NCBI GenBank assembly: GCA_964429815.1
Contig: CAYSCM010000001.1
Coordinates: 224,001-288,000 of the forward strand
Direction of reading: 5' to 3'
DNA: 64,000 nucleotides
Source: an uncultured Candidatus Saccharibacteria bacterium
Lineage (GTDB): Bacteria; Patescibacteriota; Minisyncoccia; Phycocordibacterales; CAYSCM01
The position numbers and the translations under genes were made by a program. Shown here one piece after another: positions 1,445-22,632 of the stretch. The notes below the pieces were generated by a model. That model did no database searches, was not told the origin of the DNA, and saw only the letters and a list, made by a program, of their open reading frames with translations. Numbering within the stretch: the first letter of the stretch is position 1; every line of letters starts with the position of its first letter.

Positions 1445-2977
1445 CTAGGAAACGTGGTAGCGTCCGCGAATTTTTTTTATCTCCTCCCCTTCCGCCTCAG
1501 CCTTTTTCTCTTTACCGCTATCACCTAACTTTTTTAGTTCTGCTTCCGAAAGCTTCACTAATTCTTTCGAACGCGATTCAAGATACTCCGCTGAATTTTT
1601 TTTCGGGTCATCGAGTACTTCTTCCAAAAGTGCGTGCAGAACGAATCCTATTTTTGGCCCGGGCTTTTCATTCGTCACCTCCATTACCTTCACCCCATCG
1701 ATTTTGAGCATGCCCACGGAGATCGGATCGCGCAACGCCTCCTCGACCATCGATTGATATTTACGAAATCGAAAGGGTTGTTCTTTCGGTCGGCCCGTGC
1801 CGATGCGATCACACACGCGCAGATTCATAAGATCCCAAATATTTTCCGGTCCGACATTTCTAATGACGCGACGCACTGCGGAAAGTGTTATTTTTTCTGG
1901 ATCGGAAAAAAACATGTGCCAACGAACAAGCTCCACAACCTTACTGATGGTGTCGCTCGGAAAGCGCAGGTCGGTGAGGATTTTTTTAGTACGCTTCGCG
2001 CCAACTACGTCGTGGCCGTAAAAAGTCCAGTCTTTTTTTTCATCCGACCAGCGTCTCGTCTCCGGTTTAGCTATGTCGTGAAAAAGCCCCGCCAGGCGAA
2101 GATCGAGCGACCACCCTTTATCTGCCGCGTGCTGAAGGGTGCGTAAGTTATGCTCAAAAACGTCGAATTTGTGGGCTTGATTTTGATCTACCCCGATACC
2201 CTGCTCGAGCTCCCCCGCGATGAAGGGCAGGACCTTGAGTTTCTCTGCCAGCCAGAGACCTTGGGCGGGACTATCCGTTTGAAGAATGCGGACAAACTCG
2301 TCTCGAATACGCTCCTTCGATATCTTGGAGAGGCTTCTGGCACTTTGTTCTATGGCTGCCGCCGTCCTCTCTTCTAGAGAGAAGGTAAGGTCGGTCGCTA
2401 TGCGAATAGCGCGAAGCATGCGAAGCGCATCCTCGGCGAAGCGGTCTGCTGGCTCTCCCACTGCACGAACGAGTTTCTTTTTAAGATCCACTTCCCCCTC
2501 AAAATGGTCGACAACCTCTCCGGTATGGGGGTTTAGCGCGAGTGCATTTATGGTGAAATCGCGGCGCTTGAGATCTTCTTCGAGTGTGGCACCAAATTCA
2601 ACCGAATCAGGGCGGCGGGCATCCGAGTACTTCCCCTCCCGTCGGTATGGGGTTACCTCGATAACCTTCAGACGAAGGTCGACGGCCTCCTCGTTCACTA
2701 CCCCCACTGTGCCGAATTCATTGGTGTAGAAGGTATTAGAAAACAACTTCTGTATTTCCTCGGGACGGGCATTCGTCGCCACGTCCCAATCTTTTGGTTC
2801 GCGTCCGAGGAGGAGGTCGCGTACGCAGCCACCGACGATGTAGGCCTCAAAACCGGCCTTTTCTAGGGCTTCAGTGACAGCGAGCACCTCATGTGGGATG
2901 GAAACGTCGTGCGATTTTGGCACCCCTGCATTATACGTGTTTTCCCATAAGCTCACTTTGTCGTAGTATGGCCTCAC
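1445..2977 (-). CDS. cca: CCA-adding tRNA nucleotidyltransferase (PolyA polymerase/HD-domain family) with K/E-rich C-terminal tail
   Basis: 510 aa; head domain GGCVRDLLLG...DWD; HD motif LFHDIAKPETRR; the only in-frame start is GTG at 2977 (alternative GTG at 2956). Confidence 0.85.
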   Translation of the reverse strand: MRPYYDKVSLWENTYNAGVPKSHDVSIPHEVLAVTEALEKAGFEAYIVGGCVRDLLLGREPKDWDVATNARPEEIQKLFSNTFYTNEFGTVGVVNEEAVDLRLKVIEVTPYRREGKYSDARRPDSVEFGATLEEDLKRRDFTINALALNPHTGEVVDHFEGEVDLKKKLVRAVGEPADRFAEDALRMLRAIRIATDLTFSLEERTAAAIEQSARSLSKISKERIRDEFVRILQTDSPAQGLWLAEKLKVLPFIAGELEQGIGVDQNQAHKFDVFEHNLRTLQHAADKGWSLDLRLAGLFHDIAKPETRRWSDEKKDWTFYGHDVVGAKRTKKILTDLRFPSDTISKVVELVRWHMFFSDPEKITLSAVRRVIRNVGPENIWDLMNLRVCDRIGTGRPKEQPFRFRKYQSMVEEALRDPISVGMLKIDGVKVMEVTNEKPGPKIGFVLHALLEEVLDDPKKNSAEYLESRSKELVKLSEAELKKLGDSGKEKKAEAEGEEIKKIRGRYHVS

Positions 2978-2978
2978 T

Positions 2979-3050
2979 GCCCCCGTGGTGAAATGGATAT
3001 CACAACTGGCTTCGGACCAGTTATTGTGGGTTCGAGTCCTGCCGGGGGCG
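2979..3050 (+). tRNA. tRNA-Arg (anticodon TCG)
   Basis: Hand-folded cloverleaf: acceptor GCCCCCG/CGGGGGC, D-stem GTGA/TCAC, anticodon stem ACTGG/CCAGT with loop CTTCGGA, T-arm GTGGG-TTCGAGT-CCTGC, discriminator G; begins 2 nt after the divergent cca start codon. Confidence 0.7.
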
Positions 3051-3205
3051 CAAACGGCACAAAACGCGGTGCATTTTGCGCGTTTGCGCCAGGCGGAGCG
3101 ATGTTTTGCGAGTACACAAAACCGTGAGCCGAGGCCGCGAAAATTCTGAGCGACGACGAAAAACTATTTTTGTGACCGCCTCGGCGTCGGGTGACAGATT
3201 CTAGA

Positions 3206-3253: not shown

Positions 3254-3324
3254 GCGGCCATAGTTTAGTGGTAGGACGGATCCTTGCCAAGGATCAGGTG
3301 GGAGTTCGATTCTCCCTGGCCGCA
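3254..3324 (+). tRNA. tRNA-Gly (anticodon GCC)
   Basis: Acceptor GCGGCCA/TGGCCGC, anticodon stem GATCC/GGATC with loop TTGCCAA, T-arm GGGAG-TTCGATT-CTCCC, discriminator A. Confidence 0.85.
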
Positions 3325-4165: not shown

Positions 4166-4238
4166 CGGGGCGTGGTGTAACGGCTAACATACCCGCTTTG
4201 GGAGCGGGCGACTCCCGGTTCGAATCCGGGCGCCCCGA
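4166..4238 (+). tRNA. tRNA-Pro (anticodon TGG)
   Basis: Acceptor CGGGGCG/CGCCCCG, anticodon stem CCCGC/GCGGG with loop TTTGGGA, T-arm CCCGG-TTCGAAT-CCGGG; flanked by a 13-bp complementary extension (CTTCGTCGGGGCG / CGCCCCGACGAAG). Confidence 0.85.
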
Positions 4239-5492: not shown

Positions 5493-5563
5493 GCGGGCAT
5501 AGTTTAGTGGCAAAATGGGATCCTTCCAAGATTCGGTCGCCGGTTCGATTCCGGCTGCCCGCA
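5493..5563 (+). tRNA. tRNA-Gly (anticodon TCC)
   Basis: Acceptor GCGGGCA/TGCCCGC, anticodon loop CTTCCAA, T-arm GCCGG-TTCGATT-CCGGC. Confidence 0.85.
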
Positions 5564-6561: not shown

Positions 6562-8097
6562 CTATCGGGCGAATTCAATTGCTCGGGACTCCCGAATCAC
6601 GTTTACCTTGATCTCACCGGGGTACTTGAGCTCTTGTTCAATGCGGTTGGCTATTTCACGGGCCAACTTTTTAGCATCGAGGTCGCTCATTTCTTCAGGA
6701 CGAACAAAGACGCGCATCTCGCGGCCAGCTGCGATGGCGTAGCTCTTCTCGATACCGGGGAAGGAGTTGGCGATAGCTTCAAGATCGGTAAGGCGTTTAA
6801 TGTAGTTTTCGACGGAGTCGGAGCGCGCTCCGGGGCGACCGCCAGAAATAGCATCTGCGACCTGTACGATGATCGATTCGAGATTTTCATACGGGTACTC
6901 CTCGTGATGAGCCTGCATGGCCTTGATGATCTCGGGGTCGACGCCGAACTTCTGAAGGATTCGGCGACCGATTTCCACGTGCGTTCCCTGCACTTCATGA
7001 TCGACGGCCTTGCCGAGGTCGTGGAGAAGCGCTCCCGCCTTGGCGACCTGGACGTTGGCCCCCACTTCCTGCGCAATAATGCCCGCAATGTGGGCCATTT
7101 CTACCGAATGCTGCAGGACGTTTTGTCCGTAGCTGGTGCGGAAGTAGAGACGGCCAAGGATCTGAAGAATGCGCGGATCGAGATTGAGAACCCCGCACTC
7201 ATACGCAGCTTGCTCCGCTTTGTCTTTCATTATTTTTCCGATTTCCTCCCGCGCTTTATTGACCATTTCCTCGATCTTCGCGGGCTGAATGCGGCCATCA
7301 ACGATGAGGTTTTCAAGTGCGACACGCGCGATCTGGCGGCGCACGGGGTCGAATGAGGAGAGAGTAATGGTTCCCGGCGTATCGTCGACGATGACATCGA
7401 CGCCGGTTGCTCGCTCGAACGCTTTGATATTGCGACCTTCCTTGCCGATGATCTTCCCCTTCACCTCATCGGAGGGGATAGTGATGGTGGTTGCCATCAT
7501 GTCCGAAGCGACGGAGTTGCCAAAGCGGTGAATGGCGGTCGTAAGGATCTGTTTGGCCTTTTCCTCCAGCTTTTCTTTCCCGCTCATCTCGAGCTTTTGC
7601 ATGCGCACGAGGATGTCGCCCCCGTACTCTTTTTCGACTTCCTTCAGAAGCTCATCTTTTGCGGCATCGCGCGAGAGAGACGCCACGCGTTCGAGTTCGG
7701 CTACCTTGGCTTTCGCCATGTCCTCGACCTTTTCGCGCACCTGTTTCACTTCCGCTATCTTTCCCTTGAGGGCCTCCGCCTCTTTTTCAAGCTCTCCCTG
7801 GCGTTTTTCTATGGTTTCTTCTTTCTTAAAGAGGCGATCTTCGGTCTTTTTGACCTGCTCTTCCTTCTCTTTGACCTCGGCGCGGATCTTCTCGGCTTCT
7901 TCTTCTGCTTTCACCTTTCCCTCGTCGATGACTTTCTTAGCCTGCTCTTTGGCATCGAGCATCATCTTCTTTATCTCGAGCTCCATGGAGCCCTTCCGGC
8001 CGAGCGCGACGAGAAAGCGCAGAAGGTACCCGGCTCCGATGCCAACGAGACCGGCAAGGCCGGCGAGTATGAGTGCTGTGGTTACTGACATATGCAA
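6562..8097 (-). CDS. rny: ribonuclease Y
   Basis: 511 aa; N-terminal TM, coiled-coil, KH domain (IIGKEGRNIK), HD domain (HDLGKA). Confidence 0.9.
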   Translation of the reverse strand: MHMSVTTALILAGLAGLVGIGAGYLLRFLVALGRKGSMELEIKKMMLDAKEQAKKVIDEGKVKAEEEAEKIRAEVKEKEEQVKKTEDRLFKKEETIEKRQGELEKEAEALKGKIAEVKQVREKVEDMAKAKVAELERVASLSRDAAKDELLKEVEKEYGGDILVRMQKLEMSGKEKLEEKAKQILTTAIHRFGNSVASDMMATTITIPSDEVKGKIIGKEGRNIKAFERATGVDVIVDDTPGTITLSSFDPVRRQIARVALENLIVDGRIQPAKIEEMVNKAREEIGKIMKDKAEQAAYECGVLNLDPRILQILGRLYFRTSYGQNVLQHSVEMAHIAGIIAQEVGANVQVAKAGALLHDLGKAVDHEVQGTHVEIGRRILQKFGVDPEIIKAMQAHHEEYPYENLESIIVQVADAISGGRPGARSDSVENYIKRLTDLEAIANSFPGIEKSYAIAAGREMRVFVRPEEMSDLDAKKLAREIANRIEQELKYPGEIKVNVIRESRAIEFAR

Positions 8098-9462: not shown

Positions 9463-9557
9463 GGGGAGAGTCTAGCAGATTAAGGCCTATAAACAAGGAC
9501 TATTGGCAAAGCGGTCTCTACTTTTTAAGAGGCCGTTCTTCCTGCTAGACTTAAGGC

Positions 9558-9875
9558 ATGGCAAAGATGGAACAAGGGCCAAACGGAGGCGGGCTTAAGG
9601 GAAGCGAGCTCATGAAAGCTCATCCCGAGGTGTTTAATTATTTAAAAGAGAAAGTAGAACCGCAGCTAGCGGAACTCTTTGGGCCAGAAATAGAGGCCAA
9701 GCGTTACTCAGCTGAGGAGCTTTCCTCGCGCGTCGCCAACTTTATTGCGCTACGTGCTGAACAGCACAAACCGATAAAGACCAGGGAAGATGTCGATGAG
9801 TTAGCAGAGCAAGCATCATTTCAACAAATGCTTATCGATGCCGCCGCACGGCGTGATCAAAGTCTTCGCGAATAG
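9558..9875 (+). CDS. hypothetical protein (105 aa)
   Basis: ORF with codon-like composition; alternative start at 9567. Confidence 0.4.
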   Translation: MAKMEQGPNGGGLKGSELMKAHPEVFNYLKEKVEPQLAELFGPEIEAKRYSAEELSSRVANFIALRAEQHKPIKTREDVDELAEQASFQQMLIDAAARRDQSLRE

Positions 9876-9917
9876 TGTAGAAATGGAAAAGGCCTCGGAC
9901 GAATCCGAGGCCTTTTA

Positions 9918-10121
9918 CTAGTGAATCGATAAGGTTTCTGGCGCGGGCTTCAAAGACCAGCGCTTGATGAACGTGAGCAATTTCACCCGTTCGCACGGGG
10001 AGTAGCCCGCGAAGAAAAGTTGCTGCTCCGGCGTGAGCGGAAAGTCTTCTTGGAGAGCCGCAAACTCCGCCAGACATTTAGTATCGGACTTGCCGAAACC
10101 GCTTCCTTTTTTAAAATCCAT
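9918..10121 (-). CDS. hypothetical small protein (67 aa)
   Basis: Strong RBS GAGGAGG 4 nt from the ATG. Confidence 0.45.
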   Translation of the reverse strand: MDFKKGSGFGKSDTKCLAEFAALQEDFPLTPEQQLFFAGYSPCERVKLLTFIKRWSLKPAPETLSIH

Positions 10122-10285
10122 CTAGTCCTCCTCAGAACCTAAAGGTACTTTGTGCGTTTTCGAAAACCTTACAACGAATATACGGTTTTGCAAGTGCATT
10201 GTGCAAAATGTCCGTTCAACCCTACAATACCTTTATGGAAAAAATGCCTCTCCCGCAGGAAGGATCGAAAAAAGGAGAAGAGAAA

Positions 10286-10483
10286 ATGACCCGCCGTGGA
10301 TTTCTTAGCGGACTTGGAAAGTATGTTGCCGGAGCTGCGGCCATAGCTGGTGCCTCAGCCATTGCAGGGCCTATTTACAAGCCTACACAAGAGAAAAAGC
10401 TCCCGGATTTTGGCAAAGTTGACCTGGATATTAAAGAGAAAAAGCCAACTCCTCCCCAGGCGGAGGTGAAAGAAGAAAAATAG
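10286..10483 (+). CDS. small protein with twin-arginine (Tat-like) signal peptide
   Basis: MTRRGFLSGLGKYVAGAAAIAGASAIAG followed by a K/E-rich tail; RBS AAGGAG 8 nt upstream; the ORF-track start at 10199 is probably too early. Confidence 0.45.
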   Translation: MTRRGFLSGLGKYVAGAAAIAGASAIAGPIYKPTQEKKLPDFGKVDLDIKEKKPTPPQAEVKEEK

Positions 10484-10485
10484 TC

Positions 10486-11238
10486 ATGCTAAAGGAACTC
10501 CAGGACTTTGGACTCTCTGAAAAAGAAGCAAAAGTGTATCTCGCCTCACTTGAGGTTGGACGGGCAACCGCAGATCAGCTCGCGAAGCAAGCTAAAGTGA
10601 ATCGCTCGACCACGTACGTACAAATGGAGTCTCTTATGAAAAAGGGACTCATGAGTACCTACGTAAAGGGCAAGAAAACCTATTTTGCCCCCGAGTCGCC
10701 GGAGTATCTCGAGCAAATTCTTCAACGGAAAAGAAGTAATCTAGAATCAACGGCACTGGAGCTCAAAAAGAAACTCCCTGATCTGGTGCGTCTCTATGAC
10801 AGTGCCGGCGAGAGGCCATTTGTGCGTTTTTTTGACGGGAAAGATGGCATAACCGCCATGCGCGAGGAAACACTCCAGCTTCCGAGGGGAGAAACTTTTT
10901 ATGTAATGTATTCTTACGACGCACTGAGATCCCTTTATTCATCAGAAGAAATTCAGGATTTTTCAGAGCGACGTGAAAAGAAGGGTCTAAAAATTAAACT
11001 TCTTTACACTCGCAAAGATGGAAAATTTGATCCAAAAAACATCGCAGTCGACACGGAAAGACGTTTTTTCTCTCATGAGAAATTGGGACTCGATACCGAT
11101 TTTTTTATTTATGGAGATAAAGTTGCTCTTATGGCTCTAAAAGGGAAGGTGTTTGGTATTGTCATTGAAAGCGCAGTTATTGCGGACAGCTTCCGTACTA
11201 TATTTGAGCGACTCTGGGAAGGAGCTGAGGAAGAATAA
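10486..11238 (+). CDS. TrmB-family transcriptional regulator
   Basis: 250 aa; N-terminal wHTH LSEKEAKVYLASLEVGRATADQLAKQAKVNRSTTY, characteristic of TrmB. Confidence 0.8.
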   Translation: MLKELQDFGLSEKEAKVYLASLEVGRATADQLAKQAKVNRSTTYVQMESLMKKGLMSTYVKGKKTYFAPESPEYLEQILQRKRSNLESTALELKKKLPDLVRLYDSAGERPFVRFFDGKDGITAMREETLQLPRGETFYVMYSYDALRSLYSSEEIQDFSERREKKGLKIKLLYTRKDGKFDPKNIAVDTERRFFSHEKLGLDTDFFIYGDKVALMALKGKVFGIVIESAVIADSFRTIFERLWEGAEEE

Positions 11239-11278
11239 AAAAATAAAAGGCCGTGGAACGCAGAAGCATTCCACGGCC
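11236..11278 (-). terminator. rho-independent terminator oriented for the minus strand (hairpin GGCCGTGGAACGCAGAAGCATTCCACGGCC; T-run on minus strand)
   Basis: 10-bp stem; AAAAATAAAA run on the plus strand gives a T-run for a minus-strand transcript. Confidence 0.5.
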
Positions 11279-11650
11279 GGACGTTGAGCACGAACAGATG
11301 TTGGAGGCGACTAGGCTGCCCCCACAGGTCTACCGCCAGTTTACCAGCCGGACGGATCGCCTGGATCCAGTCTCATTTTGTCTGCCGCCACCTTTGGGCG
11401 GCAAAGAACTTTTTTGCCGCTTTCGCATGGCGGCCCTTCCATCAAACCCGGGTTTGGAACTGGGCTTTCCCGGCAGTACCCAGGTCGGTCAGGCGCACGC
11501 CTTAACCGATCCGCAGAAAGTCTAGCATATCGAACAAAATTTGTAAAGGTTCTGCAAAATAAGGTCAGTTAAAATTGACATTACTATTTTAAAAAATGGC
11601 TTTAAATATAGAGATTTTTATTACTTCATGATATAATTTGTCAAAAGCAC

Positions 11651-11679
11651 TTGACAAAAATATAGGCGGCGCTATAATG
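11651..11679 (+). promoter_or_regulatory. near-consensus sigma70 promoter TTGACA-16-TATAAT, overlapped by a 9-bp inverted repeat ATTTGTCAA-N6-TTGACAAAT
   Basis: Exact hexamers; lies in an AT-rich patch (11560-11680) between GC-rich segments. Confidence 0.6.
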
Positions 11680-11686
11680 CCGTTGT

Positions 11687-12840
11687 CAGTGTGAGCTAAC
11701 AGGTTGGTAACCTGCATAAGCATCTTGTTTGTCCATCCTCTGGACCCCGCAGCCATTCGCTTTGTGCAGCTGTATCGTGGGCCGCTGGACGCGGCTTTTC
11801 TTGATGCTCGGTTTCGACCTTAGCTCACCCTGTTCGTTTCACAATAACCCTGCTCGCTGCTTTCGCAGCCAGCAGTGCCCTCGGAAGAAATTCTGTGTGC
11901 ACTGTTGGCTGTGGAGAGCCAGTAGCCCCGCAAGGGGGTATAGGTGACGAAGGCGTCCTCTTCGTTGCCGGCTACTTTCGTAGCCAAGTCTCCACGTGTA
12001 TGGAAACGGTGCCCTCGGAAGGGGGACTTCACATCGTTCCTACACGGCCGAGCCCTTGCAAGGGGCAGAGTCGTTAGAAATCGATAGCGGCTTGCAACCG
12101 CGATGCGATGGAAAGTCAGGAGGCGAAGTGTACAGATCGCAAGTCTGTGCATGGATCTCCTCACGCCTGGCAAAGGACAGTGGGATCATGAAAAGATCTT
12201 GCTGATGCCAATAGTGAGGGAATCGGATGAGCGTCGGGCCATGCCCCAATCCCTGCGCCGGTGGGACGGCGCAGGTGGAAAAGGGGAGCGGTTACGCACC
12301 GCATGGAGGAAGCCCTGGCCGGGGTGGATTCCAAGAAGCTCATTCGAGGATAAAAGGCACAGCATATGCCTTCGACCCAAGGGGCGACCCAAGGGATATG
12401 CGGTCAGAACCGGCAGCTGTCAGCAACAGCGGTCCATCTGGGCAGTACATGCGCCCAGCGATGTCGGTCGGGAACATTGGCCTTATGTTCCGTCTCCCAC
12501 ATTTTCGCTTGTTCCTTCAGGTTTGTGCCAAGGGTGTCCACGGCAAAGTTGGCGGCTCTCCAGCCGCCAACGTGTCCGGCGGCATCCGGGCAACCCAGTG
12601 CACGGAGGTGCACGAAATGGATTGGTCTCGCTGAGGACCAGTGCACGTACCATCTTTTAGGGTACGGGTGCAGAGGAGTGTTGTCGCGATGCCCGCGGCC
12701 GCGCTCCTCATCAGTTGCTTCGCGAGATGTGTGTCTCGCCTGATGAGCTTGAAAGAGCGAAAAGCACAGTTCTCTATACATGCAAATTGAGTCGTTTGAA
12801 GAGGATGCTGCCGCTTCTTCCTCAAACGACTCAATCGCCA
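11687..12840 (+). ncRNA. candidate large structured noncoding RNA (about 1.15 kb with no credible ORF); RNase P RNA-like motifs GGAAAGUC (~12100), GGUGGAAAAGGGGAGCGGUUACGCACC (~12290) and CAGAACCGGC (~12405) at E. coli-like spacing
   Basis: Only short, Arg/Trp-rich overlapping ORFs in all six frames; starts just downstream of a consensus promoter; motif resemblance was judged by eye, with no covariance search. Confidence 0.3.
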
Positions 12841-12856
12841 CGGAAGGAGGGACCCG

Positions 12857-13060
12857 ATGAGCGACATTTGCGTTGTCTCCGAGAACGGGCACGTTCTCGG
12901 CACCCACTCGTGGGTGGAGGGGTTCAAGCCCCTCAAGGTGTCCAGCCGCACAAGCGAGATAGATGTGCTCGCCCACGCGCTCTATCTGGAGCGCACGGTC
13001 TCTTCGGAGGCTGGCCTCGAGTACATCGAGGTGTGGGAGAAGCGCAAGCTTCTTCGCTAG
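12857..13060 (+). CDS. hypothetical small protein (67 aa)
   Basis: RBS AAGGAGG 7 nt upstream; protein-like composition. Confidence 0.4.
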   Translation: MSDICVVSENGHVLGTHSWVEGFKPLKVSSRTSEIDVLAHALYLERTVSSEAGLEYIEVWEKRKLLR

Positions 13061-13251
13061 CGGTTATGCCGGGAGAGGAGGGGGGATCCTCGCATACCGG
13101 CGGGGGTGAAACTTCACCTTGGCAACAGAAGATTTCTCGGACCACACCCCTACATAGTCAGAGAAATCAAGTTTTGGGCGATGATGAATCGCCCTCTCCA
13201 CTGCGCACATGAATCCTTCGTGTGCGAAGACGAGATCTTTGGGAGGAAACC

Positions 13252-13569
13252 ATGACCGAATCGAGCTCCGTGCAGAGCGCGCCCCGCACGTGCGTCTCCT
13301 GCGGGAGGCCGGGCGCCAAGTGGGATCTCAGTGTTGGCGGGAAACTGCCGGTGCCGGCCCACAAACCCTGCGCGGAGATAATCCGCGCGACCGCGCCGCA
13401 AGGTACGGTCGTGACGGTCAAACCGTCACCCGAACTCCGCGAGGAGTGGGCTCGTGAAAACGCCCGCAAGTTCTGGGAAGGCCAGAACAAACTCGGCGCG
13501 GCCTTACAAGCCGCAGGGGTCACGCTGCCGAAATCCGGAAACGGATCGCTCGGCGGGGGTGGGAGCTAA
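13252..13569 (+). CDS. hypothetical small protein (105 aa) with CxxC-x25-C
   Basis: RBS GGGAGGA; internal start of ORF 13222-13569. Confidence 0.35.
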   Translation: MTESSSVQSAPRTCVSCGRPGAKWDLSVGGKLPVPAHKPCAEIIRATAPQGTVVTVKPSPELREEWARENARKFWEGQNKLGAALQAAGVTLPKSGNGSLGGGGS

Positions 13570-13678
13570 TCCATCCTGGCAACAGAAACAAAAATCCGCG
13601 TGGCGAACGTTCCTCGCCATTTCTTTTGAGTTCGCGAATCCTCGTGGGCTCATCGAAATAGCTCTTTGGGAGATACAG

Positions 13679-13996
13679 ATGCGCTACGTTGCAAATGCTT
13701 TTTCACTCAACATGCTTGCCTCGCTTTCGGCAACAATCAACTCGGTCGCGATCGGCGCGCGTGAGGCCGCCGCGTGGGCCGAGGGTGCTCAGTCGATCGT
13801 GGGTCACCCCGATACGGCCGCAGTGATGAGTGCGACGCTCGGGACCCCCGTTCAGTTCAATCGCGAGAGTGTGCAGCTCAGGCCGGGCGACGAGCTTCTT
13901 GTGGGCCAATACCGTGGCCCTCGGCTCCCGGAAGGGGCAAAAGTCCTTCCGGAAGGCGCTCGCTTCGAGTGGGCGCACGTCAAAATCATCGCGTAA
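13679..13996 (+). CDS. hypothetical small protein (105 aa)
   Basis: Internal start of ORF 13454-13996 with GGGAGA RBS; upstream part is Arg-rich. Confidence 0.3.
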   Translation: MRYVANAFSLNMLASLSATINSVAIGAREAAAWAEGAQSIVGHPDTAAVMSATLGTPVQFNRESVQLRPGDELLVGQYRGPRLPEGAKVLPEGARFEWAHVKIIA

Positions 13997-14450
13997 GCGT
14001 ATTCACAAGGCGAGGTCCCAGAACGTGTCCGACTATATATCTCGGACACTACCTACGCTGTTCGTCTGGTAGCACCAGACGTTAGGGAAAATCCTCTCCC
14101 GTAAAACAATGAGGTCAGGCTGAGGGGGCCTGTGTGTTTGCTCCGCGGACCTCCCGAAAGGAGCGTCGCGTAAAGGAACACAAAACCCCGGGCGAGTGCA
14201 CGTGTTTACTCGCCCCTCTTATCAAATGCATCAATGGTGGTGCATTTGAATGGAGGTCCACACATGGACAAGTTCGTTGCGTTTGTGCTCGCGAGGCTCT
14301 GCGCGCCGCGCAGATCCGCCTCGAAGCGAAGCGCAACGTCGAGCAGCGTTTTGCGGCATAGCGACGCAACAGCTCTTTTAAGAAAGGAGGGTCGCCATGA
14401 ACAGGCGACTAAGTACAAGCTACGCGACCATCACTCACGGGGTGGTCGCT

Positions 14451-15530
14451 TTATTTTTGAGACTCGAGAAATTCGATCGCTTTTTGGTTGGTGAGTGCGT
14501 TCGCGACATAGGCACGAACACGGTTTTCGTCAGCGCCCTTGTGGTGCTCAAGGAGGTGCTTTGCTTCACCGGCGATTTCCTCGGGAGAGGGAAGAAGGTT
14601 CTCGCGTATAGCGATTTCGTGGAGTATGAGCTGGAGCCTAGCTCTCTTTTCAGCGTCGGGGCGCCACTCTTTTCTCAAATCATCCTCGCTCTTTTTTATA
14701 TGCGCAAGATAGTCATCGAACTTTCCGCCGAAGCGCTCAACATCGTCGCGAAACTGCAGGAGGAGCTTTCCGAGCTCGCTTTCAACGAGAAGCTCAGGGG
14801 TATCAAAGGAGCTTCCCGCAACGATGGCTTCCATAATGGCACTTCGACGCGATTCGATGGCCCGGCGGCGTTTGTCTTTCACGAGGTCCTCGCGCAGCAT
14901 CTTCTTGAACTCGTCGACGGAGGCGAAAGGACCGAGGGCTTTTACGAACTCATCGGTTATTTCGGGAAGGATTTCCTTGTCACCCTCCCTAGATGCTGAC
15001 GCATCGGGCGAACCTCCGTCTTCGGCGGAGGTTTTAGCCTTCGTCGCTTTGCTTTTGCGCAACTGCGTGAGGGCGTCGTCGAACTCTTTGTCAGTGACCT
15101 CGAACGTCTCCGGAACTTTTTCCTGTTTCATCGCGAGCTTTTTATAGTCAGGAAGAGCGATGTCCGGCTTAACGGTAACGACGATAGAAAAACCGACTGG
15201 ATTTCCCGGTGCAAGCTTGGTGATTGCGATGCGCGGCTCTCCGAGCGGTATGAGCTTGTGCTCCTCTATGAGTTTTGGATAGAGCTCAGAGAGCGCCTCC
15301 TTAGAGGCTTCTTCGAGGAGCGCCATCTCGTCGACCCGCTGGAGGACCATTTCTTTCGGGGCCCTGCCGGGACGAAAGCCGGGAAGTTTGGCCTCTTTCA
15401 CAAAGTGTTCGAGCGCATGCTCACGCAGCCGCGCTATGGTAGCGGTCGGAATTTCGCCGGTGATGATGACGATCGAGCCCTTTTCCTTCTTTACGGAAAT
15501 GTTTTCGTACATGAAATCCGAGTCTAGCAA
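14451..15530 (-). CDS. tig: trigger factor (ribosome-binding and chaperone domains; PPIase domain apparently absent)
   Basis: 359 aa; GFRPGRAPK ribosome-binding signature near the N-terminus. Confidence 0.85.
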   Translation of the reverse strand: MLDSDFMYENISVKKEKGSIVIITGEIPTATIARLREHALEHFVKEAKLPGFRPGRAPKEMVLQRVDEMALLEEASKEALSELYPKLIEEHKLIPLGEPRIAITKLAPGNPVGFSIVVTVKPDIALPDYKKLAMKQEKVPETFEVTDKEFDDALTQLRKSKATKAKTSAEDGGSPDASASREGDKEILPEITDEFVKALGPFASVDEFKKMLREDLVKDKRRRAIESRRSAIMEAIVAGSSFDTPELLVESELGKLLLQFRDDVERFGGKFDDYLAHIKKSEDDLRKEWRPDAEKRARLQLILHEIAIRENLLPSPEEIAGEAKHLLEHHKGADENRVRAYVANALTNQKAIEFLESQK

Positions 15531-20880: not shown

Positions 20881-22632
20881 ATGCACGTTGAAGAAAAACA
20901 GCTTAAGGAATTTATCCTTGACTCCGGCCTCGTTTCCCGAAGTGCTGTCGAGAGTGCTGAAAAGGAGGCAAAGGAGCAGCAATCCTCGATAGGTAAGGTT
21001 CTGGTGACCAAGGGATCGCTCTCCGAAGACGATTTGCGCCGGATGCAGGCGTACGTGCTCGGTATTCCCTACGTATCGCTGAAGCGCCAAAAAATCCCCT
21101 TCGAGATACTCTCCCTCATCCCCGAGCCCATCGCACGCAACCACAACATCGTCGCGTTTAACAAGCGCTCCGATAAAGAGCTTGAGGTCGCCATGCTCGA
21201 CACCGATGACCTCGCCGCCATCGAGTTTATCAAGAAAAAGACTGGGCTCAAGATACAGCCGCGCCTCACCGACACGGATTCCATCAAAGAGGTGCTTCTC
21301 CAGTATCAGCGCACGCTCAAGGCCGAGTTCGGCGACATAATTCGCAAAGAAACCGACGCCCTAAAGACGCTCTCAGAGAAGGAGGGTGATCTCTCCGAAG
21401 GGGACCTTAAGAAAATGGCCGAAGACCTCCCCGTCGTGCGTGTCGTCGACGCGCTCCTGCGCCACGCTATCATCCAGGACGCTTCCGACATACACATCGA
21501 GCCGCAGGAGCAGGAGGTTCTCGTCCGCTACCGCCTCGACGGCATTCTCCATGAGGCGATGACACTGCCGCGCTCTGCGGGCGCTTCCATCACGGCCCGC
21601 ATCAAGGTGCTCAGCAATCTCAAGCTCGACGAAAAACGCCTCCCCCAGGACGGCCGTTTCAAAATGGAGCTCAATGGCCAAAAGGTTTCTTTCCGCGTTT
21701 CCATTCTTCCCACCTACTTTGGCGAAAAGACCGTCATGCGTCTTTTGCGTGAGAATCGCTCGGGCTTCACGCTCGAGAGCCTCGGCTTTCACGGCAAAGG
21801 GCTCGACGACATCCACGAGGCCACGAAGCAGACGACCGGTATCATTCTGACCACGGGGCCCACCGGCTCAGGGAAGACGACAACGCTCTACACGGTCCTT
21901 GATATTCTCAACACGCCCGACGTTAATATTTCAACCATCGAAGACCCTATCGAGTACCAGATGCCGCGGGTCAATCAAACGCAGGTAAAACCCGAAATCG
22001 GCTTCACGTTTGCCAATGGATTGCGCAGCCTCCTGCGCCAGGACCCGGACATTCTCATGGTCGGCGAGATACGCGACGCCGAGACCGCGGGACTCGCCAT
22101 CAACGCCGCTCTCACGGGGCACCTCGTCCTCTCGACGCTCCACACTAACTCGGCCGCGGGCTCGATGCCGCGCCTCATCGACATGGGGGTACAGGCGTTT
22201 CTCATGGTCTCGACCATCAAGGTCATCATTGGTCAGCGCCTCGTGCGCAAACTGTGCGCGGACAGGGAAGAACACCAGCTCACCAAAGCGGAAATGGCGC
22301 AGCTCTCTCATGCCGTCGATATGGATAAAGTCCTCGTCGAGCTCAAGGCTGAAAAGATCGTGCCGCAAAACGCGACGTGGAGCACGGTGCCGTTTTACAA
22401 AGCAAAACCTTCGGCGGAGTGCGAAGACGGGTACCGTAGCCGCATCGGTATCCACGAAGTCCTCAAAGTGACACCGACCATCCGCGAACTCATCATCAAA
22501 GGTGCGACGACGGACCAGATCGAAAAGCAGGCACGCGCGGAGGGAATGCTTACCATGCTTGAGGATGGTGTCTTCAAAGCTGCGCAAGGCATTACGACCA
22601 TCGAAGAAGTATTGCGCGTCGTGTACGAATAA
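20881..22632 (+). CDS. pilB: type IV pilus assembly ATPase PilB (GspE family)
   Basis: 583 aa; N-terminal T2SE_N-like domain, Walker A GPTGSGKTTT, Asp/His boxes. Confidence 0.9.
   Translation: MHVEEKQLKEFILDSGLVSRSAVESAEKEAKEQQSSIGKVLVTKGSLSEDDLRRMQAYVLGIPYVSLKRQKIPFEILSLIPEPIARNHNIVAFNKRSDKELEVAMLDTDDLAAIEFIKKKTGLKIQPRLTDTDSIKEVLLQYQRTLKAEFGDIIRKETDALKTLSEKEGDLSEGDLKKMAEDLPVVRVVDALLRHAIIQDASDIHIEPQEQEVLVRYRLDGILHEAMTLPRSAGASITARIKVLSNLKLDEKRLPQDGRFKMELNGQKVSFRVSILPTYFGEKTVMRLLRENRSGFTLESLGFHGKGLDDIHEATKQTTGIILTTGPTGSGKTTTLYTVLDILNTPDVNISTIEDPIEYQMPRVNQTQVKPEIGFTFANGLRSLLRQDPDILMVGEIRDAETAGLAINAALTGHLVLSTLHTNSAAGSMPRLIDMGVQAFLMVSTIKVIIGQRLVRKLCADREEHQLTKAEMAQLSHAVDMDKVLVELKAEKIVPQNATWSTVPFYKAKPSAECEDGYRSRIGIHEVLKVTPTIRELIIKGATTDQIEKQARAEGMLTMLEDGVFKAAQGITTIEEVLRVVYE

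Follow-up and report, generated by a model that had tools for sequence, protein, structure and literature searches.

What occupies the 3 kb between the gene for a TrmB-like regulator and tig (positions 11290–14400) in a 64-kb stretch of DNA from an uncultured Candidatus Saccharibacteria bacterium (contig CAYSCM010000001.1, positions 224,001 to 288,000; the whole stretch is called the window hereafter)? A first reading, made from the sequence alone, described a compositionally distinct, coding-sparse island holding three small open reading frames (ORFs) and proposed a decayed mobile element, a prophage remnant or another horizontally acquired island. Comparison with relatives points elsewhere. 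With a probability of roughly 0.7, the stretch is the variable part of a conserved TrmB-linked type of locus in Paceibacteria, members of the candidate phyla radiation (CPR), in which modular cassettes would be expressed from one promoter by a mechanism inferred below. No description of the locus or of its RNAs was found in the literature.

Conservation begins upstream of the cassettes. In a scan of GTDB species genomes, the TrmB-like gene was present in 26 species at 49–59% identity, all of them Patescibacteria and mostly labelled as Paceibacteria-type (Kaiser-, Adler-, Nomura- and Niyogibacteria). The 400–500 nucleotides (nt) on its 3′ side could be aligned across 18 lineages, with nhmmer matches in about 25 loci. 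The comparison with related genomes that the sequence-only reading had proposed shows the TrmB-like gene, a control region, a promoter and a leader to be kept as a platform in at least 18 Paceibacteria lineages, and in 14 lineages an array confined to one strand lies behind it. All 18 aligned lineages keep the TTGAC of the promoter unchanged, the promoter follows the pattern CTTGACAAA-N17-TATAMT across lineages, and promoter plus leader were matched as a regular expression in 11 loci. A convergent micro-ORF is present in 18 of 28 lineages (e.g. L019 at about 6900–6935 and L022 at about 6875–6909; relatives’ loci carry L numbers), and its signature GCCGYCGCC...CAT...CCTCC is kept in 18; the copy in the window has lost its stop codon and reads through to 32 amino acids (aa). 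The AT-rich control region is the presumed operator of the TrmB-like regulator, which may control the array.

What varies is the content behind this platform. A common layout of ClpP (minus strand), TrmB (plus), 2.0–4.6 kb of variable sequence and Tig (minus) is shared by L015, L022, L025, L027, L030, L041 and the window, while in L021 and L026 ClpP adjoins Tig and the TrmB-like gene lies beyond NusA. Two metagenomic lineages, named here the L006 and L014/L015 groups, were reached through homologues of the first ORF; in each, the TrmB-like gene is succeeded by a gap without coding sequence, a homologue of ORF1 and several small plus-strand ORFs in a row. The translated searches that had been suggested, and searches with the non-coding parts, yielded homologues in other lineages for ORF1, ORF2, ORF3, the junction element, both structured RNAs and the hammerhead. 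These parts are differently ordered in the window, L006, L015, L019, L022, L030, L031 and L035, and cassette content also varies between lineages. Contigs encoding identical proteins were 100% identical to the window and contributed no variation. The features of the window locus, several of which the sequence-only reading had already picked out correctly (the minus-strand terminator at the left edge, here 11278–11249; the three small ORFs; the palindromic hairpin at 14027–14051), are as follows.

11249–11278, minus strand: intrinsic terminator, a 13-bp stem followed by TTTTATTTTT, closing the convergent unit downstream of the TrmB-like gene
11330–11428, minus strand: micro-ORF convergent with the TrmB-like gene, 32 aa in this copy; the copies of relatives follow a ribosome-binding site (RBS), have mostly 9–16 aa and end G-D/G-G-x-stop
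11520–11650, no strand assigned: AT-rich control region in which TGTCAA/TTGACA boxes recur and which also has a palindrome, read as ATGGCT..AGCCAT in the copies of relatives; conserved as alignment columns
11651–11678, plus strand: sigma-70 promoter, TTGACA-16-TATAAT, 12 of 12 consensus matches
11683–11865, plus strand: leader, starting with the conserved hairpin TTGTCAG-N6-CTRAC and continuing as a lineage-specific structured stretch
11866–12510, plus strand: structured RNA cassette of about 645 nt, with homologues at L015 2066–2745 and L019 7985–8660
12520–12712, plus strand: hairpin-rich spacer (z-score −5.7) with a very stable end hairpin, 12673–12709, just 5′ of the hammerhead
12714–12768, plus strand: type III hammerhead with complete core (Rfam Hammerhead_3, RF00008, 31.5 bits, E 5.7e-4)
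12786–12835, plus strand: 23-bp hairpin, 3′ of the hammerhead and 5′ of the ORF1 RBS (z-score −7.6)
12857–13060, plus strand: ORF1 cassette, RBS-preceded, 67 aa, with the motif GHVLGTHSWVEGFKP
13099–13246, plus strand: junction before ORF2, a hairpin plus UGGCAACAGAA (13099–13130), then a degenerate element (13165–13246)
13252–13569, plus strand: ORF2 cassette, RBS-preceded, 105 aa, with a CxxC...HKPC motif
13556–13669, plus strand: junction before ORF3, a hairpin plus UGGCAACAGAA, a terminator-like hairpin, a 15-bp hairpin, AUCGAA and an RBS
13679–13996, plus strand: ORF3 cassette, RBS-preceded, 105 aa, assigned to the STIV_B116-like/DUF1874 family (the AcrIII-1/Crn2 ring-nuclease family)
14027–14051, plus strand: hairpin GTGTCCGA..TCGGACAC, 3′ of the ORF3 stop codon
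14047–14186, plus strand: structured RNA of about 140 nt with four hairpins and invariant GCUGUUC, CUGCUCC and GUAAAGG
14186–14262, plus strand: degenerate junction
14264–14494, plus strand: possible remnant ORF, 76 aa, empty in Pfam
14424–14449, plus strand: intrinsic terminator, a 9-bp stem followed by TTTATTTTTG, ending the array immediately next to the 3′ end of tig, which is convergent

The platform is also found next to other genes. In L021, L026 and L043 a type IV pilus ATPase gene lies directly 3′ of the promoter region, and in L031 three cassettes stand between the promoter and such a gene, a placement across lineages from which it follows that the TrmB-plus-array module and the Tig–NusA block have swapped places between lineages. 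The ATPase genes (MshEN plus T2SSE) are at L021 7592–9034, L026 7560–9047, L043 about 1620–3161 and L031 5968–6942; in the window, pilus genes (20881–22632) are located beyond the Tig–NusA block.

Junction elements between cassettes

Most cassettes have a conserved module on their 5′ side, with an RBS and start codon at its end. In many instances UGGCAACAGAA stands first; a GC-rich hairpin of short length and CUUUAUUCAG are next in order, then a hairpin looped by CGCGAAU, then CUGAUUGAG, the RBS and the start codon. In structural terms, a terminator-like hairpin with a U tract is followed by a 15-bp hairpin and then by the RBS; the consensus of the element is CUUUAUUCAGCYCGCGAAU..UCGUGRGCUGAUUGAG, and the start codon usually lies 3–12 nt 3′ of it. 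The repeated motif reported by the sequence-only reading is part of this picture: the window contains exactly two copies of TGGCAACAGAA, at 13120–13130 and 13577–13587, both on the plus strand, and GGCAACAGAA is found again in the arrays of L015, L022, L030, L031, L035 and L039. Two other interpretations were tried and rejected, namely a sigma-54 promoter at TGGCAACAGAA, where no GC element stands at the right spacing, and a repetitive extragenic palindrome or bacterial interspersed mosaic element (REP/BIME), the junction element being confined to the array in a scan of the window.

The pairing of the junction hairpin is conserved and strand-specific. Across 39 aligned junctions, 89% of cells are paired, compared with 34–50% when the partners are slid; both sides have changed in 10 of the 15 pairs, and the observed values were reached in none of 500 shuffles. 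The alignment holds 140 G.U against 27 A.C cells, and pairing falls from 89% to 70% when it is read on the opposite strand. From this excess of G.U over A.C it follows that the hairpin forms on the plus strand only. A covariance model of the element (R1) gave 55 matches in the relatives’ loci, distributed over 14 lineages; 54 of them are on the plus strand, and all but one of these 54 lie downstream of the TrmB-like gene. Within the window, the three best matches all fall inside the island, at 13590–13669 (49 bits, E 1.6e-12; its terminator-like site is at 13600–13620), 13165–13246 (14.7 bits, E 0.02) and 14186–14262 (11.1 bits, E 0.23).

An action of the junction element at the RNA level, through partial termination, processing or stabilisation, is favoured because the hairpin is strand-specific, its first hairpin is terminator-like and the element is fused to an RBS. 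The 33 proteins encoded 3′ of junctions are small and nearly all unannotatable; Pfam recognised only DUF1874, twice, and four matched PHROG families of unknown function. Several junctions in relatives have no ORF of at least 25 aa downstream (L006 3219–3619, L015 3332–3413, L030 8054–8133 and L022 8481–8561), so the two structured RNAs may not be the only cassettes without a protein product.

One alternative treats the junction hairpins as recombination sites of an integron-like system, folded in plus-strand single-stranded DNA and served by a tyrosine, serine or HUH enzyme encoded elsewhere. Sedentary chromosomal integron arrays offer a close analogy, with a strong platform promoter, small cassettes in one direction, palindromes at the boundaries and variable content. 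The locus shares the one-directional array of small, mostly promoter-less ORFs behind one platform promoter, with an imperfect palindrome per boundary; cassette order is shuffled between lineages; G.T pairs are tolerated in folded single-stranded DNA; and a serine recombinase adjoins the array of the L006 group. We nevertheless consider this explanation unlikely. Neither an IntI-type nor any other recombinase is encoded within 10 kb of the window locus, nor in most of the relatives’ loci, there is no attI, and the junction consensus lacks the attC core GTTRRRY/RYYYAAC. In addition, the element lies directly 5′ of the ORF, fused to its RBS, and the terminator-like hairpin with its U tract suits a role in RNA, as does pairing specific to the transcribed strand. 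Integrons differ further in that some cassettes here are structured RNAs and the platform gene is TrmB-like. The layout is thus integron-like without the integron recombination machinery.

Two other systems resemble the junctions in part. PeSLs (promoter early stem-loops), which Arbiol et al. reportedly described in 2010 as ‘mobile regulatory cassettes’ in hyperplastic regions of T4-type phages, are likewise repeated stem-loop modules in intergenic positions that flank small novel ORFs, with modular shuffling by recombination between repeats suspected. However, PeSLs have an early promoter, whereas no sigma-70-like promoter was seen in the TrmB-array junctions, and the TrmB-linked arrays are chromosomal in CPR bacteria and were not found on viral contigs. 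In phage T7, RNase III processes hairpins that lie between early genes. Similarly, imperfect hairpins of about 15–20 bp recur here between genes of what would be one polycistronic transcript, but the junction also has a terminator-like hairpin and the conserved single-stranded UGGCAACAGAA, and its cleavage is putative.

Composition and origin of the stretch

The compositional distinctness originally claimed for the stretch proved weak. GC content is slightly raised, at 0.569 for 11290–14400 against 0.546 for the whole window, and the GC-rich part (11750–14250, 0.585) lies about 1.4 standard deviations above the mean of 2.5-kb segments, 3% of which are equally high; the tetranucleotide profile, however, is ordinary, 20 of 122 segments being at least as distant from the window as the island is. 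The true GC outlier is the left flank, 9463–11750, at 0.468 (0.440 in the TrmB-like gene), and the visible contrast arises because this flank is unusually GC-poor. Running from clpP to the array promoter, the flank has the lowest GC content in this part of the window and ranks first for tetranucleotide deviation; besides the TrmB-like gene it contains two small unannotated plus-strand ORFs (9558–9875 and 10199–10483). Near-uniform composition, together with homologous parts conserved in relatives, is largely what was found, and it is the pair of observations that the sequence-only reading had named as speaking against its own proposal.

That the stretch is what remains of a prophage or integrative element, inserted between clpP/TrmB and tig and since decayed, is improbable. 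Promoter, leader, control region and junction stand at the same place in many genera, and the site is not empty in relatives, where the platform is present in at least 18 lineages, the array in 14, and the content alone varies. Pfam annotations of all called genes revealed no recombinase or integrase within 10 kb of the window locus, and neither att-like direct or inverted flanking repeats nor phage structural or replication genes were found there. Among phage genomes, INPHARED held no match to the large RNA, ORF1 or ORF2; in IMG/VR four pattern scans came back empty, no arrays were found on its viral contigs, and no ORF1 relative was found on viral contigs; the junction was likewise unmatched in these collections. 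With the ordinary k-mer composition, these results outweigh the points that do suggest a mobile origin: the ORF3 family was first found in archaeal viruses, 4 of the 33 cassette proteins match PHROG families, and GC is slightly raised.

The L006 group, too, speaks for a mobile origin. Its array, of about 10 kb, lies between inverted repeats of about 80 bp (L006 1–86 and about 10248–10333) and was assembled in both orientations with respect to a flank on which a tRNA gene and a 333-aa ORF accompany the gene of a large serine recombinase. The corresponding coordinates are L007 10104–13011 and L010 150–3057; L008 has a third left flank (PrsW, HSP20 and DUF2914). To this extent the spirit of the island reading survives. 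The content is likewise accessory and modular and includes one cassette of a family first found in viruses (DUF1874).

Structured RNAs and a hammerhead

As the sequence-only reading had stated, the stretch is sparse in coding sequence, with no credible ORF over 11680–12856, and the large structured RNA lies in this part. It has homologues in two other lineages, and because two junction elements flank it in L019 it behaves as a cassette. The fold obtained from the three sequences with RNAalifold has 175 pairs in 29 helices. In it, 90.2% of cells are paired, compared with 41–45% with partners slid; both sides have changed in 65 pairs (10–15 when slid, 27.9 ± 3.9 when shuffled); G.U cells number 75 and A.C cells 10; and the folding z-score is −6.7.

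That this ORF-free stretch of 1.2 kb is instead a pseudogenised coding region, with the RNA structures as GC-rich by-products, is very improbable and already largely refuted: long spurious ORFs (185 and 190 aa) do overlap it, and gene callers annotated both, but in the conserved part each frame has at least three stops in all three homologues, substitutions lack three-base periodicity, 2 of the 28 alignment gaps are a multiple of three, the 185-aa ORF (12103–12660) has no homologue among 5.8 billion proteins, where only the query itself was returned, and the 65 compensatory pairs and the G.U excess fit a structured RNA.

No match to the large RNA was found in Rfam 15 at E ≤ 10 over 10800–14900, or at E ≤ 1 in L015, and it was unmatched to the models of ROOL, GOLLD, OLE, HEARO, raiA, RNase P, group I and II introns and rRNA. 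With ROOL, GOLLD, OLE, raiA and HEARO it shares a length of several hundred nt, many helices, GNRA-capped hairpins, long-range closing helices and an accessory context; it differs in lacking any match to them at E ≤ 10, in being found so far in three Paceibacteria lineages and in forming a junction-flanked cassette. Seven loci returned by a metagenome pattern scan for the large RNA were rejected as chance, none of them matching the RNA profile (nhmmer, E ≤ 10).

The small RNA at the end of the array has homologues in L006, L015, L025 and L033. Its 33 pairs are formed in 94.5% of cells (32–49% when slid), with both sides changed in 23 pairs, and it too has no Rfam match. Together with the junction hairpin, the 645-nt and 140-nt RNAs make three new conserved RNA elements supported by covariation, none of which is in Rfam.

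Between the large RNA and ORF1 stands the hammerhead, which separates the RNA part of the locus from its mRNA part. Its core is complete (CUGAUGA at 12740, GAAA and the cleavage triplet UUC), and the cut is predicted between C12721 and G12722. When both strands of 373 kb were scanned with a descriptor, exactly three type III hammerheads were found, in the window, L028 and L041, and none in 30 shuffles. All three are on the plus strand, inside TrmB-linked arrays and directly 3′ of a GC-rich hairpin; each copy folds at minimum free energy into the hammerhead junction, its three helices arranged around the core with stem III open, and all three stems (I, II and III) show covariation from copy to copy. 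The position of this conserved hammerhead suggests that it defines RNA ends. In L028 and L041 it follows the last junction-linked cassette, again directly 3′ of the hairpin, so that 3′-end formation may be its main role. In E-value mode, Rfam reported the hammerhead as the sole match in the island region and its relatives. In gathering mode over the whole window, only four tRNA genes were matched, at 2979–3050, 3254–3324, 4166–4238 and 5493–5563.

Hammerheads occur in bacterial and phage operons, and RiboJ is a synthetic insulator that combines a ribozyme and a hairpin before an RBS. In the window, likewise, a type III hammerhead with complete core precedes a strong hairpin, with the ORF1 RBS next in line, and cleavage would uncouple RNA from mRNA; in contrast to those cases, the window copy scores below threshold, its stem I has a 4-nt loop, and no loop–loop contact is evident.

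A one-transcript model and the small proteins

What the sequences show directly is the anatomy of the locus with its conservation, covariation and strand specificity. The model inferred from it is a single plus-strand transcript, from about 11686 to 14449, that would carry interchangeable cassettes, in the window the 645-nt RNA, ORF1, ORF2, ORF3 and the 140-nt RNA. The hammerhead would cut this transcript. The large RNA would thereby be set free, its 3′ end defined by the cut, and the mRNA of ORF1–3 would be left with a 5′-OH and a structured 5′ end, an insulator-like pairing of ribozyme and hairpin. At each junction, partial termination, or hairpins that direct processing or stabilise the RNA, could turn the cassette into an expression unit of its own, and the mutual similarity of the junctions may provide the recombination points at which cassettes are shuffled.

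Several observations weigh against this model. The hammerhead, at 31.5 bits, is under the Rfam gathering score of 48.5, and its homologues in L028 and L041 were not reported by Rfam at E ≤ 0.1. The large RNA is known from three lineages only, and the sequences that support its structure are the ones used to predict it. Of the three junction elements in the window, two are degenerate (14.7 and 11.1 bits), and recognition as single-stranded DNA would likewise be compatible with a hairpin specific to one strand.

A wider interpretation is tentative, and we hold it to be doubtful rather than probable: the TrmB-linked array may be an undescribed, integrase-free cassette system of the CPR in which protein genes and RNAs serve alike as plug-in units with RNA-level junctions, and the large RNA may represent a new class of large functional RNA, matured by the hammerhead and either catalytic or acting as an anti-defence decoy or scaffold. 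The CPR make up a large share of bacterial diversity, and their accessory genome and non-coding RNAs are almost uncharted. If the one-transcript model is right, it offers a testable account of how symbionts with tiny genomes might keep a fast-changing pool of small proteins on one regulated promoter, and in some lineages that promoter would also drive the type IV pilus ATPase gene. Among the members of the pool are a protein of the ring-nuclease family and, in one of the relatives, an alpha-CTD of RNA polymerase encoded on its own.

The first of these is ORF3, which by sequence is a DUF1874 protein of the ring-nuclease family. It scores 33.7 bits against PF08960 (gathering score 26), matches phrog_5063 and the structures 2j6b, 2x4i, 2j85 and 6scf in the PDB, and keeps the GH (His47), NR and RLPEG motifs of the AcrIII-1/Crn2 nucleases, which act on cyclic tetra-adenylate (cA4). 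Its His43 is aligned with the catalytic His47 of 2x4i, the absolutely conserved catalytic histidine of AcrIII-1 in SIRV1 gp29 (10.1101/778746). It differs from AcrIII-1/Crn2 proteins, whose context is viral or that of type III CRISPR, in its setting: the array is part of a bacterial chromosome, precomputed Pfam annotations list no cas genes within 10 kb of it, and its activity is predicted. The alpha-CTD cassette, at L028 8195–8413, encodes 73 aa (PF03118, 55.7 bits).

ORF2 has homologues in the L006-group loci and in L035, at a different position in the array; no Pfam match rose above threshold, and a word-indexed protein search returned the query alone. Homologues of ORF1 occur in the arrays of L006, L015, L022, L027, L030 and L031, and its family comprises about 50 cluster representatives among 1.84 billion proteins. 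It matches neither Pfam nor PHROG, and its AlphaFold model, with a predicted local distance difference test score (pLDDT) of 65, is too uncertain to use. Pfam likewise gave nothing informative on multi-domain proteins with ORF1-like repeats, large metagenomic proteins in which the ORF1 domain occurs as 3–8 tandem copies (P0024, 1820 aa; P0038, 807 aa; P0047, 911 aa).

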